Assembly (NCBI GenBank): GCA_030612365.1
Contig: JAUWOA010000004.1
Span: 1-55,161, forward strand
Origin: Candidatus Thorarchaeota archaeon
GTDB lineage: Archaea; Asgardarchaeota; Thorarchaeia; Thorarchaeales; Thorarchaeaceae
Direction of reading: 5' to 3'
Length of the DNA stretch: 55,161 nucleotides
Shown here piece by piece: positions 1 to 4,726 of the stretch. The translations under genes and the position numbers were made by a program. Each line of letters starts with the position of its first letter. Within the stretch, counting starts at the first letter, position 1. A model generated the notes under the pieces. The model worked only from the letters and a program-made list of their open reading frames with translations. It ran no database searches and was not told where the DNA came from.

Positions 1-43
1 GAACAAGAATGGGAGTGAACTCGTCTGACCGGACTGGTCAGAG

Positions 44-51
44 TTTATATA
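44..51 (+). promoter_or_regulatory. Archaeal TATA box for tnpB
   Basis: TTTATATA about 20-25 nt upstream of the GTG/ATG at 67/70, the usual position for a leaderless archaeal transcript. Confidence 0.55.
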
Positions 52-66
52 TCCTCGAAGGCGAAC

Positions 67-1746
67 GTGATGGTTCAATCCCAAACCCCAGTAATCAGTG
101 TCAAGATTCCCATCAACTGGGAAGCTATGACCAAACGGTCACGCCAAAGACTGACGCAGATTATGGGTCGGGATACCAGAGTGATTCGAGCGCTTGTTGG
201 CATTATCGAAGCGAATGAACTTGACCTTCTGCGAGGAAGGAATAGGAAACGCATCGACGAAAGCAAACTTCATGCCATGACTATGACAGCAGTGAGGACT
301 ACATGTGACACAAATCAGAGATTGGTTGTCAAGTACGATCTCAAAGCTCGCTTTCCAAGAGCTTCAGCAAACGAATTAACTGAGTGTCGGAGGGCTGCAG
401 TTGCGAATTATGAGAGCTACTTGGCTCTTCGTGCGAAAAAGTGGCGTCGTGCATCGAGGCCCTGCGAAATAAACCGCTCTCGGAGAATTCCTCGGTGGGT
501 ATATATCCCCTACAGAGCGAAGCTCGTCGAGCATAGAACGAGAGCTGCCCGTTGGTGGATCAATCTGAGGGACTCTCTGGACTCAACCCCTGAGGGTCGA
601 AAAACCCACGACAGACTGTTAGTACCTCTGAAGACGTCGCCATTCCATCTTAGCCAGCTTCGGCGGGGAAATCCAAAGGCACTGCAAGTCTTCAAAGACC
701 GAGAAGGCAAATGGTGGACTACAGTTGCAGTGAGATTATCAACTGTTGAAACTAGCCCTTCAAACCAACAATCTGCAGCTGTTCTGGGAATTGACCTTGG
801 TATCAACCGAGCAGTCTGCACCACACTACTTACGCCCAAGAAAGTGTCTGAAACTCGGTACTTCTACCAAGAAGATAAAGCCAAGCTGATGGTCAAGTAT
901 GATGAACTGGTCGCACAACTACAACAAGAATTCGACACTCGTAAGAACAAAGGACTGCACTACGAAGGAGTGTTAACCAAGCTCAAGACTCTCCGATTGA
1001 AGAGAGAGAAGGTCGCCAAGGAGCATGATCGGCTTCTTGTAAGTCAGCTCCTTGCCTACATCAAGACTCTCAATGAAGAGTTCGAACTCTATATCGCCCT
1101 CGGTAGACTGAAGGGGATTAGAGGTAGCGCTCGAAAGGGAAACTACAAGGGTCGGAAGTTCCGCGGGATGGTCCATAGGTGGTCCTTCTCCCGCATTACT
1201 CTCTCTCTCAAACACGGACTATCTCAGCTTGGGTGGAAGGTTGAGGGGAAGAGTGCTAGATTCCAAACGGTGCCTGAAGCTTGGACCTCCATCCTATGCT
1301 GGAAATGTGGTCGCAAGGGAATCCGACCTAAGCAGTCAATTTTCGTATGTCATACTTGCGGCTTTCGCACGAATGCAGACCGCAATGGCTCGCTAAATAT
1401 CGCGCGTCGCCTAATTAAGCTCACTCCCGCACTTCGGGATGAGAAAGGACTAGGGCGTTGGGCTCTCCCCGAGAGAGCTCCAGCCCCGAAGGCCGCGAGG
1501 AAGATTCGTTCTTCTAAACGGAAGTCCCCACTCCCCTCTAAGGATGATACATCACATCTTGGGGAGTCCGCGGCTATTCACTCTGCTCAATTGAGCCTTC
1601 TTGACTTCGGCGACGGAGTTCAGAAGAGTGATGATGACCTTGCCGTGGTAAGAACTGTGGAAAAACTCTCTGCCACTGGAGATGATGCAATCAGGATAGG
1701 GCAGAAGAGAGAAGCCAGGACTACAGGAGGGATTCAATCCCGATGA
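67..1746 (+). CDS. tnpB: TnpB-family RNA-guided endonuclease (RuvC + zinc ribbon) with rearranged RuvC-II
   Basis: RuvC-I VLGIDLGIN, Zn ribbon CWKC...CHTC, RuvC-III NADRNGSLNIA. Canonical RuvC-II Glu is replaced (YIALGRL), with an alternative VPEAWTS before the Zn finger. The start may be ATG 70. Confidence 0.92.
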   Translation: MMVQSQTPVISVKIPINWEAMTKRSRQRLTQIMGRDTRVIRALVGIIEANELDLLRGRNRKRIDESKLHAMTMTAVRTTCDTNQRLVVKYDLKARFPRASANELTECRRAAVANYESYLALRAKKWRRASRPCEINRSRRIPRWVYIPYRAKLVEHRTRAARWWINLRDSLDSTPEGRKTHDRLLVPLKTSPFHLSQLRRGNPKALQVFKDREGKWWTTVAVRLSTVETSPSNQQSAAVLGIDLGINRAVCTTLLTPKKVSETRYFYQEDKAKLMVKYDELVAQLQQEFDTRKNKGLHYEGVLTKLKTLRLKREKVAKEHDRLLVSQLLAYIKTLNEEFELYIALGRLKGIRGSARKGNYKGRKFRGMVHRWSFSRITLSLKHGLSQLGWKVEGKSARFQTVPEAWTSILCWKCGRKGIRPKQSIFVCHTCGFRTNADRNGSLNIARRLIKLTPALRDEKGLGRWALPERAPAPKAARKIRSSKRKSPLPSKDDTSHLGESAAIHSAQLSLLDFGDGVQKSDDDLAVVRTVEKLSATGDDAIRIGQKREARTTGGIQSR

Positions 1747-1866
1747 TGGTTGTCAAAGACCCTGCTTGCCTTCAGGTAGCACTGAAGGTTCGCGGTGACG
1801 CTGGGCGGGGTAAGGGTGGAACACAGAAGTCCGTAGACGCGGTTCACTCACTGTTTAGGAAAGGAA
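1450..1866 (+). ncRNA. Putative omegaRNA/reRNA overlapping the tnpB 3' end
   Basis: TnpB guide scaffolds are known to overlap the ORF 3' end and the right end. Here the last ~100 codons lack recognisable motifs, there is a hairpin CCTTCAG-GTAGCA-CTGAAGG (1769-1788), and the end reads TTCAC/TCAC at ~1843-1851. Boundaries are guesses. Confidence 0.4.
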
Positions 1867-1941
1867 TGGTGCGCCTGCCGGGAATCGAACCCGGGTCACC
1901 ACCTTGGAAGGGTGGAATCATTGCCCCTAGACTACAGGCGC
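1867..1941 (-). tRNA. tRNA-Gly(TCC), CCA encoded, no intron
   Basis: Reverse complement GCGCCTG...CAGGCGC-ACCA acceptor stem, anticodon arm CCACC-CTTCCAA-GGTGG, T-arm CCGGG-TTCGATT-CCCGG. Confidence 0.96.
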
Positions 1942-1955
1942 GATTGTCCGCACGC

Positions 1956-2182
1956 GGACGGTCAGTGGAAGGCTTGGATCATATTGGACTATGATGCGAT
2001 CTCACGGGCGGTCAGTGGAAGGCTGCCGTCCCAAACCAGACTACACAAGGCTGTGTTTCGGATGGCTCACTACTCCTTCGCGTTTTAAGGATGTTGTTGA
2101 AGTGGGTCTATCAGGACGGTCAGTGGAAGGCTCGAGTCATGTTGAAGCAGAAAGCGCTATCATGGATGGTCAGTGGAAGGGT
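1956..2182 (+). repeat. Array of 19-bp direct repeats (module A, GGACGGTCAGTGGAAGGCT), ~50-bp period
   Basis: Clear copies at 1956, 2006, 2114 and 2164. Degenerate copies at 2060 (GGATGGCTCA) and possibly 2212 (GAACTGTCAG). Spacings 50/54/54/50/(48). Confidence 0.85.
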
Positions 2183-2428
2183 GAATCCTGGTGGGCAAAG
2201 CGCGTAATTTCGAACTGTCAGCAATGGTGTTGTCGCAGACTACGGACTAGTAGGGCGCAACGTGCTTGAAGGAGGTCTTTGGGTTCTTTATGACTGTCAA
2301 TTGCACATCATGGCGCAACAAAAAGCGGATACTGAGCCCATCATACTGTATTGCCTGCTGGAATGCGTCAGGGACCTTGGGAACCCCACAGGAGGATTCT
2401 AGATGGAATCTACAGGCCATTCATAGTA

Positions 2429-2905
2429 TCAGTCGGCGGAAGCTCCTGCGCTATTGAGATAAAGAATTGCATGACTCCACACAGCGAGAATCGATGGAAC
2501 CGGAATGGGGATGATAAACCTAATGAAGAACGAAGGGGCCATCGCAAGGGAGAAGACTATGATAGGGAGAATTGTCTGAAACACAAGGACCGCACAGGCA
2601 ATACACAGCCCAATGCCTGAATCTTCTGGATTCATTATTGTGTGGCGAATGTTCATGGTCAGGCCCAAGCCCAGCACTATCCATGTCACAGTCAACGTGA
2701 CGAGTGCCAGAGAATCAAAAGCGTGACCTCCCACGAGACCCAGTCCAATTCGGTAGTTCCACACGCTGATATAGCCCCATACAAAGACAAAGACTTGGTC
2801 AAAGGATTCCAACCATACACTGTCCCAATACATAATAGACATGGGCATGGCGAATGTAGAGATTACAATCAGGCACCATGTCTTTGAGTTCATTGGTTCA
2901 TCCAT
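2429..2905 (-). CDS. Hypothetical multi-pass membrane protein
   Basis: 158-aa ORF with 4-5 hydrophobic segments. Confidence 0.7.
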   Translation of the reverse strand: MDEPMNSKTWCLIVISTFAMPMSIMYWDSVWLESFDQVFVFVWGYISVWNYRIGLGLVGGHAFDSLALVTLTVTWIVLGLGLTMNIRHTIMNPEDSGIGLCIACAVLVFQTILPIIVFSLAMAPSFFIRFIIPIPVPSILAVWSHAILYLNSAGASAD

Positions 2906-3292
2906 TGTCTTTCACCGCACCCACGCCACAAACACTGTGCATCCCTTATCGATCGCGAGAGGAGGTCATGTAACTTCGATGGAACGGAAACAGGAATCTA
3001 TTGAGTCCAAGAAGCGAAAGCATGAAGCATTATGCCTTGCCAACCACGGACTGGCACTCCCAAGATATTGATACTCATACCTTTGAGAAAAGCCTTTCTG
3101 GATGAGCCCTACTTTCACTCCCGCGGCTCGCTGGGCCGAACCACCAGACACCACCATAGCTCCCAGATCATAGAGGATGACCTAAATGCTCATCAGTTGT
3201 TGTCTAGATACGGCGTTAATAAACAAATGAAAAAAGGTTTGCAGCAATCAATTACGATGGAAGATACTCAATGTCCAAACAGGTAATGAAGC

Positions 3293-4030
3293 ATGACTGA
3301 AAGCAAACTGGGTGTCGATACTCACAGGAGCTCCCGGGTTATTCATTACTTCGCATTCACATTGGCGTATTGTGTGAGTATAGTCTTCGCAGTCATACTA
3401 GGAGCCACTCTTGGCCTAGTCCCGCCTATCGACTTCTGGTTACGAATTGCAGGGCCTTTTTTCATTCATGTTTCGATTATAGGACTGTGGCTCTTCATCG
3501 TATTTCTGCCTATCTTGTTCGTGACTAACCTGAACGTTATATGGTTCGGACGGGTTCTCCAGCAGAGATTCGTTTCTACTTCCGATGCCATCAGGACCGT
3601 ACTCGGGGTGATTGTTGCGGCTCCTTTGCTCATTATCGCCGTGTGTATCTATATCCTTATGGGCCACATATTCATCTGGCCGGTCGTAATACTTGTCTTA
3701 GGCCCGATTCTATCTGGGTTCCCGCTCGTCTATGTACTCGTCATCATTGGGATTATGACCAAAGACACAAAGCAACTCATCTCAGACTGTGCAAAGAACC
3801 CTCGTTTTTGGTTTGTGTCCCTCTTGTTGATTGCCATTCTTCTCTTCCCCCTGGCCGCCCTAGGTCTCCCATTACAAAAGGCCTATTTCCAGTACTTCCA
3901 GTCAGAAGAGCTCTTCCTAATGAACATCCCTGGCCTCGTTGTCAGGGCACTGATGATAGCATCTGTCTTACCCGCCATACCATTTGCATTCCTTCGGCTC
4001 AGAGATGAAATTCTCTTTGCCGAAAAATAA
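3293..4030 (+). CDS. Hypothetical multi-pass membrane protein
   Basis: 245-aa ORF with about 6 hydrophobic helices and an ATG start. Confidence 0.8.
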   Translation: MTESKLGVDTHRSSRVIHYFAFTLAYCVSIVFAVILGATLGLVPPIDFWLRIAGPFFIHVSIIGLWLFIVFLPILFVTNLNVIWFGRVLQQRFVSTSDAIRTVLGVIVAAPLLIIAVCIYILMGHIFIWPVVILVLGPILSGFPLVYVLVIIGIMTKDTKQLISDCAKNPRFWFVSLLLIAILLFPLAALGLPLQKAYFQYFQSEELFLMNIPGLVVRALMIASVLPAIPFAFLRLRDEILFAEK

Positions 4031-4042
4031 CCAGCAAGGAAC

Positions 4043-4726
4043 ATGAAGACCATGACTGGACGAAAGCGTCGATTAGCAGTACTCCTGGTTAGCTTACTCG
4101 TAATGTCAGTGGTATTTGCAGTATACATACTCGAGTTTAGCTCCAAGGTAGACTCTTCTCGATTGTGATGGGGGGTGAGCGAAGGGGTCCAATATGTGTA
4201 CGTGGTCAATGTCTGTGGCTTCAACATGACGGGCATCAGTAATGACAGCGTTGAGTGTCCTCTATCATTCGCACCGCTAAACAACACAAGAATCATCACG
4301 ACAGTATCATGCCTCCCAGACCTTCCCGGCCTCACAGATGCTAACTCATTCGCTACTGACGTAATTATCCAGACTAAGACTGAAGTCAGTTTGGAGAATG
4401 GAACAGAACTATCTGAACGGTATGATGACGCATTGGTGTCACTAATTTCCTTGACTTTGCTTCCCGTCGGTGACTGGTCACTGATTGATTCGTTATACGA
4501 AGATGAGGATCCAGAACCGCCATTCATGAAGACTTGGTATATCGCCAAGCAACATACTAGCTCCTTCGAGATTGGTTACACGTCGTATGGACCAGACTAT
4601 GCAAGTGGTTGGAATGGAAACCTATCTCTGACAACCGGACTGCCATACTCAGCCAATCTGTGGGCGTGGAATGCTGTTGAGTCCTTCTCATGGATACTCA
4701 CAATCACACTTCTATTGAATGATTGA
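4043..4726 (+). pseudogene. Membrane-anchored exported protein interrupted by in-frame TGA at 4166-4168; paralog of 8669-9343
   Basis: MKTMTGRKRRLAVLLVSLLVMSVVFAVYILEFSSKVDSSRL*WGVSEGVQYVYVV aligns with DASSLTWGVNEGDEFVYLV of the paralog. Shared motifs APxNNT, ENG(T/S)E, LLPVGDW..(I/L)DSLY, GN(L/V)SLTTG(L/I)P. Confidence 0.75.

Follow-up and report, generated by a model that had tools for sequence, protein, structure and literature searches.

An alternative-Glu TnpB with a predicted omegaRNA beside tRNA-Gly(TCC) in a Thorarchaeota archaeon, probably carried by an aCas1 integrative element

Cas1 homologues of the Asgard aCas1 type were reportedly first described by Makarova et al. in 2020. The TnpBs associated with them in Asgard archaea carry, downstream of tnpB, a conserved T, a hypervariable region and then GTTCACTCA, according to the main text of Altae-Tran et al. 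(PMC10691335). The same article describes rearranged TnpBs, whose RuvC-II Glu lies on beta-5 instead of beta-4, and finds this rearrangement in two major clades and eight large branches, several of them nearly archaea-only. Jiang et al. (PMC10530073) report that all Fanzors, as well as TnpBs "across multiple clades", combine a Glu-to-Pro/Gly change with an alternative Glu, and describe an archaeal rearranged enzyme, TvTnpB of Thermoplasma volcanium, that cleaves DNA depending on a transposon-adjacent motif. Yoon et al. (PMC10711439) divide the alternative-Glu sequences between two clades, one D-hydrophobic-G and one DPG; Fanzors and pro-Fanzors, defined by DPG in RuvC-I plus the alternative Glu, occur only in the latter, and pro-Fanzors are mostly or exclusively cyanobacterial and IS607-associated. 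Here we describe a tnpB locus at the start of a 55,161-nucleotide (nt) window, the whole stretch of DNA analysed (positions 1 to 55,161 of contig JAUWOA010000004.1, assembly GCA_030612365.1, Candidatus Thorarchaeota archaeon). We put at roughly 0.78 the probability that the locus holds an intact alternative-Glu Asgard TnpB with its omegaRNA, in an aCas1 integrative element that targets tRNA-Gly(TCC); nuclease activity is predicted.

The gene and the codons of its predicted active site are placed as follows, in window coordinates.

67..1746, + strand: tnpB open reading frame (ORF), 559 amino acids (aa), start GTG 67 or ATG 70
Residues about 5-476 of the tnpB protein: WED/REC/RuvC/Zn-finger core, followed by a disordered tail, 477-559
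793..795, + strand: D243 codon, RuvC-I, in GIDLG (D-hydrophobic-G, not DPG)
1102..1104, + strand: G346 codon, canonical RuvC-II Glu column, in YIALGRL at the end of strand 340-347
1276..1278, + strand: E404 codon, alternative RuvC-II Glu, in VPEAWTSILC right after strand 399-403
1297..1359, + strand: C4 zinc finger, C411, C414, C428 and C431 (CxxC at 411-414 and 428-431)
1378..1380, + strand: D438 codon, RuvC-III, in NADRN, opening helix 437-452

E404 lies 58 residues past G346 and 7 ahead of C411, with six residues between the Glu and the first CxxC. When the family profile was aligned to AsCas12f (8j1j), the family's 'VaiGkL' fell on 'IQMEDL' and its 'vkEswTS' on 'IDPQYTS'; G346 therefore occupies the canonical RuvC-II Glu column, and canonical enzymes have no Glu at the column of E404. 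Among 119 close homologues, each of 500 aa or more, D243, L244, E404, D438 and each of the four Cys were present in 119/119 and G346 in 118/119, and the acidic residues near the canonical site (E337, E338 and E340) were not conserved. In a broader set of 108 aligned sequences, with identities as low as about 20%, E404, T407, S408, C411, C414, C428 and D438 were invariant and D243 and G346 at least 90% conserved. Three representatives (P0122-P0124; 45-50% identity, 578-612 aa) likewise retain the alternative Glu. A first-pass annotation of this DNA had read D243 and D438 as intact and had described a Gly in place of the canonical Glu with a Glu reappearing closer to the zinc finger; both readings hold to the residue, and the exchange proves to be family-wide.

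The published alternative-Glu pattern (PMC10711439), D{P}G-x(120,160)-E-x6-CxxC-x(12,18)-CxxC-x(4,8)-D, fits residues 243-438 of the query and 77 of the 108 aligned relatives. A DPG-type pattern was found in 0/108, the query itself reading DLG. E404 and D438 are 34 residues apart, the same spacing as E467-D501 in the solved triad of ApmFz2 (PMC11832414). In the topology of our TnpB model, strand 340-347 ends at G346, and strand 399-403 is followed by E404, which corresponds to the beta-5 position of the rearranged TnpBs. Spacing, pattern fit and topology together support completion of the triad by E404 in three dimensions: the RuvC-II Glu appears to have moved from the end of beta-4 (G346) to just past beta-5 (E404), giving a predicted triad D243/E404/D438. 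Judged by its residues, the site is the known 'alternative-Glu' or 'RIIr/TnpB2-type' arrangement with a D-hydrophobic-G RuvC-I.

In having Gly at the canonical column, an alternative Glu between beta-5 and the zinc finger, and a RuvC-III motif (NADRN) of the NADxN form typical of 'derived' TnpBs, the protein resembles the rearranged TnpBs as they are described in PMC10691335 (RIIr branches) and PMC10530073 ('TnpB2'). Its Glu offset of 58 residues differs from the published 'approximately 45' (PMC10530073) or 50 (PMC11832414). TvTnpB, presented in PMC10530073 as part of an IS605 element with a Y1 TnpA, differs in its setting, whereas the family described here pairs with a Cas1 homologue and appears to target a tRNA gene. 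Rearranged enzymes are reportedly devoid of collateral activity. With Fanzor2 ApmFz2 and the pro-Fanzors the protein shares the alternative Glu six residues before CxxC, the Glu-to-RuvC-III-Asp spacing of 34 and the overall TnpB fold; it differs from them in its DLG motif and archaeal host, theirs being DPG and a cyanobacterial, eukaryotic or giant-virus host.

Pfam PF07282 matched the tnpB product above its cut-off (44.6 bits against 26.3, E 1.7e-11), and PF01385 remained below its own (14.4 bits against 30.5). An AlphaFold2 (AF2) model built from the 108-member family alignment reached a mean predicted local distance difference test (pLDDT) of 84.3 and a predicted template modelling score (pTM) of 0.78, with residues 5-476 confident; the tail (477-559) had a pLDDT <50 and is predicted to be disordered. 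Comparison of the model with solved structures by VIA-align placed Cas12f first (Z 20.8-19.5; top match OsCas12f 9NZS, 383 residues aligned, root-mean-square deviation (rmsd) 4.7), then ISDra2 TnpB (8h1j, Z 18.5) and Fanzor2 (ApmFz2, 9B0L; Z 17.7, rmsd 4.1 Å over 377 residues), and Fanzor1 was absent from the 50 best matches listed. Foldseek on the same model gave 3.2e-15. Searched against solved structures, the family profile found AsCas12f (8J1J) as its best match at 1.7e-34, followed by TnpB 9nzp (1.8e-32), Fanzor2 (4.4e-14) and ISDra2 TnpB (4.3e-07); Fanzor1 gave no match at E up to 10.

By profile and modelled fold, the product of ORF 67-1746 is a TnpB-family protein with a TnpB/Cas12f-like WED/REC/RuvC fold, as it had been named at first pass. 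That annotation had also called the protein large: the ORF is indeed 559 aa long, but the description is overstated, residues 477-559 being disordered and their codons overlapping the omegaRNA. The folded core is similar in size to Cas12f, which is both its best profile match and its best structural match, although Cas12f keeps the canonical RuvC-II Glu and works from a CRISPR array, and here the column holds G346 and no array adjoins the gene. On its conserved residues, TnpB is intact and probably active as an RNA-guided DNA endonuclease.

The family was followed through two protein searches. A word-indexed search yielded 524 proteins from 7,994 candidates; among the best 120 of the 524, almost all were 540-600 aa long and the named ones came from Thorarchaeota, Lokiarchaeota or Promethearchaeia. 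An exhaustive search of representatives gave 828 proteins when E was allowed up to 1e-3 and 60 when the limit was 1e-30, and two named distant relatives (33-35% identity) belonged to Heimdallarchaeota. By these homologues the family is confined to Asgard archaea, which bears out the earlier suspicion of an Asgard genome. In the window's class, 55 of 87 species genomes carry it, with up to 16 matches per genome; most copies are open frames, and some have stops or truncations. The window's own genome contains three more long copies, at 58%, 58% and 45% identity. Relatives within the class fall into two tiers, one at 51-66% identity with frames of ~560 aa and one at 44-50% with ~580-630 aa (e.g. 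own contig C182), and these tiers may correspond to the two published Asgard groups.

Around the coding sequence, the window contains the following elements.

12..20, + strand: GGAGTGAAC, the left-end core, which repeats the right-end GTTCACTC core in inverted orientation with one mismatch; the window begins 11 nt upstream
25..41, + strand: left-end hairpin CTGACC-N5-GGTCAG, read from the sequence and conserved in related loci
44..51, + strand: TATA-box-like TTTATATA, 26 nt before ATG 70; TTTATA(T/A) stands at the same place in 10 related loci
1530..1830, + strand: predicted omegaRNA scaffold, covering codons 488-559 and 84 nt of 3' untranslated region, ending in GGAACACAGAAGT
1831..1841, + strand: variable 11-mer, the 'hypervariable region' of the literature, lying where the guide of a TnpB would begin; also the inner portion of an imperfect inverted repeat shared with the left end
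1842..1850, + strand: right-end core GTTCACTCA, its sole exact copy in the 55-kb window
1851..1866, + strand: linker of 16 nt that separates the core from the tRNA 3' end; probably belongs to the element

The order of T1830, variable 1831-1841 and exact GTTCACTCA at 1842-1850, found in the same layout in related loci, reproduces the conserved T, variable stretch and exact core downstream of tnpB given for the 'Cas1H-Asgard-1/-2' TnpBs in the main text of Altae-Tran et al. 2023 (PMC10691335). The likeness extends to the Asgard host and to a locus flanked by repeats, here copies of the tRNA-Gly 3' end, and, among the related loci, to a Cas1-homologue gene beside tnpB (27/34, with a Cas1 fold at Z 12.9). 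By every feature that could be tested, the window TnpB belongs to the published Asgard aCas1-associated TnpB group, and none tested contradicts the assignment. The main text of that article, as distinct from its supplements or from earlier work, which may document them, does not give the tRNA-Gly(TCC) target, the Cas4-like domain, the omegaRNA fold or the inverted-repeat character of the variable stretch.

The omegaRNA was delimited by covariation. RNAalifold on 34 loci returned 75 consensus pairs, 42 of them with compensatory double changes, and a long-range helix joins CTGTG at 1655-1659 to CACAG at 1822-1826, just ahead of the scaffold end GGAACACAGAAGT at 1830. Nucleotide conservation is high across the last ~240 nt of the tnpB ORF, third codon positions included, and continues for 84 nt past the stop. 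By this covariation and conservation an omegaRNA is encoded on the tnpB strand at ~1530-1830, with predicted ends, and overlaps the last ~70 codons. The overlap would explain both a TnpB tail that is conserved yet disordered and the occurrence of gene fragments that are C-terminal only. In the own genome, where the scaffold end GGAACACAGAAGT occurs seven times, fragments covering TnpB residues ~450-559 and/or the scaffold end were seen at C24:17-405, C78:6982-7407, C78:184-196, C51:7800-7991 and C186:19685-19846; they look like 5'-truncated copies or solo omegaRNA remnants.

At the left end, the core GGAGTGAAC stands at the same place in the paralogues and in 9 Thorarchaeota loci, and TTTATATA is the probable tnpB promoter, which would yield a leaderless or near-leaderless mRNA. 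Most likely, the guide corresponds to the ~20 nt after the scaffold (1831-1850), which we regard as the candidate. In the own genome (88% complete), this 20-mer matches only the element's own end and a remnant on contig C53, described below. A guide aimed at the element's own left end was considered and rejected, 3/11 variable positions matching without gaps when compared by eye.

Related loci show further structure beyond the limits of the window. They carry, before the point at which the window starts and some 90-135 nt upstream of the ATG of tnpB, a second TATA-like box, ~25 nt on a conserved TACGAGTTCAAAAC and then a variable stretch of ~20 nt, which often folds into a hairpin; all of these lie upstream of the left core. 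The TACGAGTTCAAAAC motif looks like a tRNA T-arm found next to the C13 element, and the region might encode a second small RNA or hold the promoter of the divergent gene. At most loci not linked to tRNA-Gly (L013, L016, L017, L036, L039, L048, L051, L054 and others), the right end, 10-60 nt past the scaffold, takes the form of a palindrome-like hairpin of ~45 nt whose tip bears GTTCACTCA; a conserved A.AGGTCA(G/T) comes next, and the 3' arm resembles the left end in direct orientation. At C91, L039 and L058 the right-end hairpin is followed, on the same strand, by a tRNA-like T-arm/acceptor fragment.

Upstream of tnpB and divergent from it, 28 of the 37 loci with usable upstream sequence contain a giant gene (27/34 after removal of three duplicate places). 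In 27 of the 28 loci that have it, the giant gene begins about 200-450 nt upstream; in the remaining one, L040, the distance is about 1,180 nt. It is complete in 7 loci (1,472-1,806 aa) and is the sole neighbour conserved across the 11 loci compared. The loci examined showed no IS607 serine recombinase, though no hidden Markov model (HMM) search aimed at serine recombinases was run. All 52 homologues found for the giant protein are unnamed Asgard proteins, and no usable ESM Atlas match was obtained; its domains were identified by fold search only. The first 520 residues gave a confident model (pLDDT 86.2). Residues 5-244 match the Cas1/casposase catalytic domain (Z 12.9-9.3 in the top 12 matches; casposase 6OPM, Z 11.0), and with Foldseek the top 12 matches of the N-terminus were all Cas1 (E 6.5e-3 to 6e-2). 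Residues 260-517 match Cas4/AddB/RecB-type PD-(D/E)xK nucleases (Z 8.1-5.7). Invariant in the alignment, in C91 numbering, are E103, H174 and D183 with R186, which we take to be the Cas1 catalytic residues, and D392 with K418, which we take to be those of the PD-(D/E)xK nuclease. On these models the giant protein is presumably a Cas1 catalytic domain followed by a Cas4-like nuclease, that is, the 'aCas1' of the literature and a presumed integrase, and it would be aCas1 that moves the element.

Giant-gene paralogues, one of them a 1,964-aa frame, occur in the own genome at C140:54737-58873, C102:8722-14121 and C185:9160-9945 with no TnpB match listed alongside, so the giant gene may also occur without tnpB. 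Between the partial tRNA copy and the giant gene, two related loci contain cargo-like ORFs: L074 (G077:C21) has frames of 656 and 394 aa at 1360-4508, and L075 (G056:C16) a frame of 983 aa at 1454-4405, both in oriented coordinates. In 7 loci, the 600 nt past the giant gene's far end (308 nt for L017) contain no inverted core (GAGTGAA/TTCACTC), so that no terminal inverted repeat of this kind bounds the whole element.

On its right side, the tnpB module abuts a tRNA gene.

1867..1941, - strand: tRNA-Gly(TCC), the putative integration target, whose 3' end lies 16 nt from the core
1796..1888, + strand: stretch repeated as a solo remnant on own-genome contig C53, comprising omegaRNA tail, identical 11-mer, core, linker and partial tRNA

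The 3' 47 nt of this tRNA gene (1867-1913) are repeated at 94% identity on C53, three nt past the stop of a giant gene whose ATG lies 5 nt after the beginning of that contig. About 440 nt past the tRNA repeat comes the C53 remnant, in which an omegaRNA tail is joined by the same 20-mer as at 1831-1850, by a linker resembling the window's and by part of a tRNA. On this sequence evidence C53 would be the left part of the window's element, with an expected gap of about 140-190 nt between the two contigs. In contigs from four public DNA runs, loose ends fall at 1795 and 1888 and the junction variants match the C53 copies; one public contig extends 276 nt past window base 1. Other public contigs, with different sequence before the tRNA (loose ends at 1867), may come from other organisms.

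The three closest TnpB relatives (63-66% identity, three genera), together with L015 and L022, share one layout: partial tRNA-Gly, 0-2 cargo ORFs, giant gene, tnpB, core and full tRNA-Gly(TCC). In the same-genus genome G083, the orthologous tRNA has a solo omegaRNA-tail remnant on its 3' side, and tnpB and the giant gene are absent there. We propose that the element is integrative and would repeatedly target the 3' end of tRNA-Gly(TCC). Integration would duplicate about 47 nt of the tRNA 3' end, so that direct repeats bound the element, and a decaying element would leave solo remnants. In such an element, of roughly 6.5-10 kb, tnpB would be the right-hand module and the divergent giant gene the other conserved gene.

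Casposons also target tRNA genes, with a target duplication of ~14-15 bp. The element resembles them in its presumed integrase of Cas1 fold and in its integration next to a tRNA 3' end with target duplication. It differs in that the Cas1 part consists of the catalytic helical domain only, fused to a Cas4-like nuclease and about 1,000 residues of unassigned fold, in the length of its repeat (47 nt) and in carrying a TnpB and omegaRNA module.

On the other side of the tRNA gene, four copies of a ~19-nt unit (core GGTCAGTGGAAGG) lie at 1956-2183, upstream of tRNA-Gly, with start-to-start distances of about 50, 108 and 50 nt. The same ~19-nt GGTCAGTGGAAGG units follow the tRNA in L015 and L022, and congeners hold multiple copies of region 2006-2238, with 13 matches in G083 and 6 in G082. 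An origin of the 1956-2183 repeats from tRNA was considered and dropped, local alignment scores being 21-24 against a mean of about 15 and a maximum of 27-31 for shuffles.

Several observations weigh against an aCas1 integrative element carrying an active TnpB. The window starts 66 nt upstream of tnpB, so the giant gene is not visible on this contig, and 7/34 related loci have none. The giant gene has no Pfam match (Cas1 none at E up to 10) and no sequence match in the PDB, singly or as a 7-sequence profile; Pfam Cas1 (PF01867) likewise found nothing in the own genome. NCBIfam guided_TnpB scores 81.8 on the window protein (E 5.6e-23), under its cut-off of 100. At some loci (e.g. C91) the tRNA fragments are inverted, not direct, which a simple integration model leaves unaccounted for. 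Finally, the candidate guide 1831-1850 would lie inside the element and in the own genome has no match other than the end of the element itself and the remnant on C53, so that a classical role in cutting the empty donor site is not evident.

The variable segment has itself been read in another way. Altae-Tran et al. raise the possibility, in the main text of PMC10691335, that it serves as a spacer-like guide which the adjacent Cas1 homologue writes or replaces, in which case the locus would be a one-spacer CRISPR-like locus and not a plain transposon-borne TnpB. The segment does begin exactly at the TnpB guide position, once the scaffold helix has closed at CACAG; loci that are otherwise similar differ in it, and a Cas1 plus Cas4-like fusion is encoded next door. 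Between the solo remnants of G000 (the own genome) and G083, the flanks are about 90-100% identical and the segment only ~7/12 alike, with a 15-nt indel after the core. Its length, however, is only 10-16 nt across loci, and in most of them pairing between the segment and what follows the core yields a hairpin that has GTTCACTCA at the tip and shows compensatory changes between loci (by inspection). Together with the core it also forms an imperfect inverted repeat of the left end: similarity between left and right ends averaged 11.3 within a locus against 10.3 for pairings with other loci, a value reached by 22/2000 permutations. This inverted-repeat and hairpin character favours a role as transposon terminus or protein-binding site over a free spacer. 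The remnant and the active copy in G000 share an identical 20-mer, as expected from duplication or gene conversion, and no regular repeat-spacer array was found in window 1-3300, where only the four irregularly spaced 19-nt repeats past the tRNA occur. We consider a written spacer unlikely.

Very unlikely, in our estimate, is a nuclease-dead, exapted TnpB serving as a regulator or RNA-guided DNA binder, in which G346 would mark a lost catalytic Glu and E404 would be kept for some other reason. The replacement of the canonical Glu by Gly invites this interpretation, many TnpB lineages are described in PMC10691335 as having turned inactive, the candidate guide has no other match in the host genome, and domestication could be read into the presence, in different genera, of several tRNA-Gly-linked copies at one and the same locus. 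Dead derivatives lose catalytic residues, however, whereas E404 and D438 are invariant in both the 119- and the 108-sequence sets, and D243 and the four Cys are complete in the former. The same arrangement is catalytically needed in ApmFz2, where E467A abolishes cleavage, and the rearranged TvTnpB is active. The family is moreover multicopy and patchy (55/87 genomes, up to 16 matches each, some copies decayed) and missing at this tRNA in a same-genus genome, which is the behaviour of a mobile element and not of a fixed regulator.

The least credible of the alternatives, put forward at first pass, is a pro-Fanzor-like TnpB specially related to the Fanzor-founding lineage, with an Asgard host that bears on Fanzor origins: the placing of the alternative Glu six residues ahead of the zinc finger, the ApmFz2-like spacing, the clear structural match to Fanzor2 and the Asgard host speak for it, but RuvC-I reads DLG in a family with DPG in 0/108 members, the partner gene is a Cas1 homologue where pro-Fanzors are cyanobacterial and IS607-associated, Cas12f and TnpB outrank Fanzor2 by profile (1.7e-34 and 1.8e-32 against 4.4e-14, with no Fanzor1) as well as by fold (Z 20.8 and 18.5 against 17.7), and the arrangement, which had been assigned to a minority TnpB clade tied to Fanzors, is reported across many independent TnpB branches, in two major clades and eight large branches according to the main text of PMC10691335. 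By its sequence, the protein falls outside the pro-Fanzor lineage as defined and has no special tie to eukaryotic Fanzors.

The locus is therefore best read as an intact alternative-Glu TnpB of an aCas1 integrative element. It carries little weight as a clue to Fanzor origins, because the shift of the glutamate is found widely and the Fanzor fingerprint of DPG and IS607 is missing. For genome editing it would add one more compact candidate, with a folded core of about 476 aa, from a mesophilic sediment archaeon and with an activity that is predicted only. Its value lies in being a well-preserved, multicopy example of the uncharacterised Asgard Cas1-TnpB elements, with a nuclease that looks intact. 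The present analysis adds, although part may already be documented, an omegaRNA delimited by covariation, a proposed integration site at the tRNA-Gly(TCC) 3' end with an unoccupied congeneric site, and a Cas1-Cas4-like fusion as partner. It is improbable, as we see it, that aCas1-TnpB elements are tRNA-targeting, casposon-like elements whose giant protein both moves the element and rewrites the variable stretch at the guide position; if such rewriting were true, the locus would be a living one-spacer intermediate on the way from transposon-borne TnpB to type V CRISPR. What TnpB does for a Cas1-driven element, and the nature of the variable stretch at its guide position, are questions that this locus makes testable.

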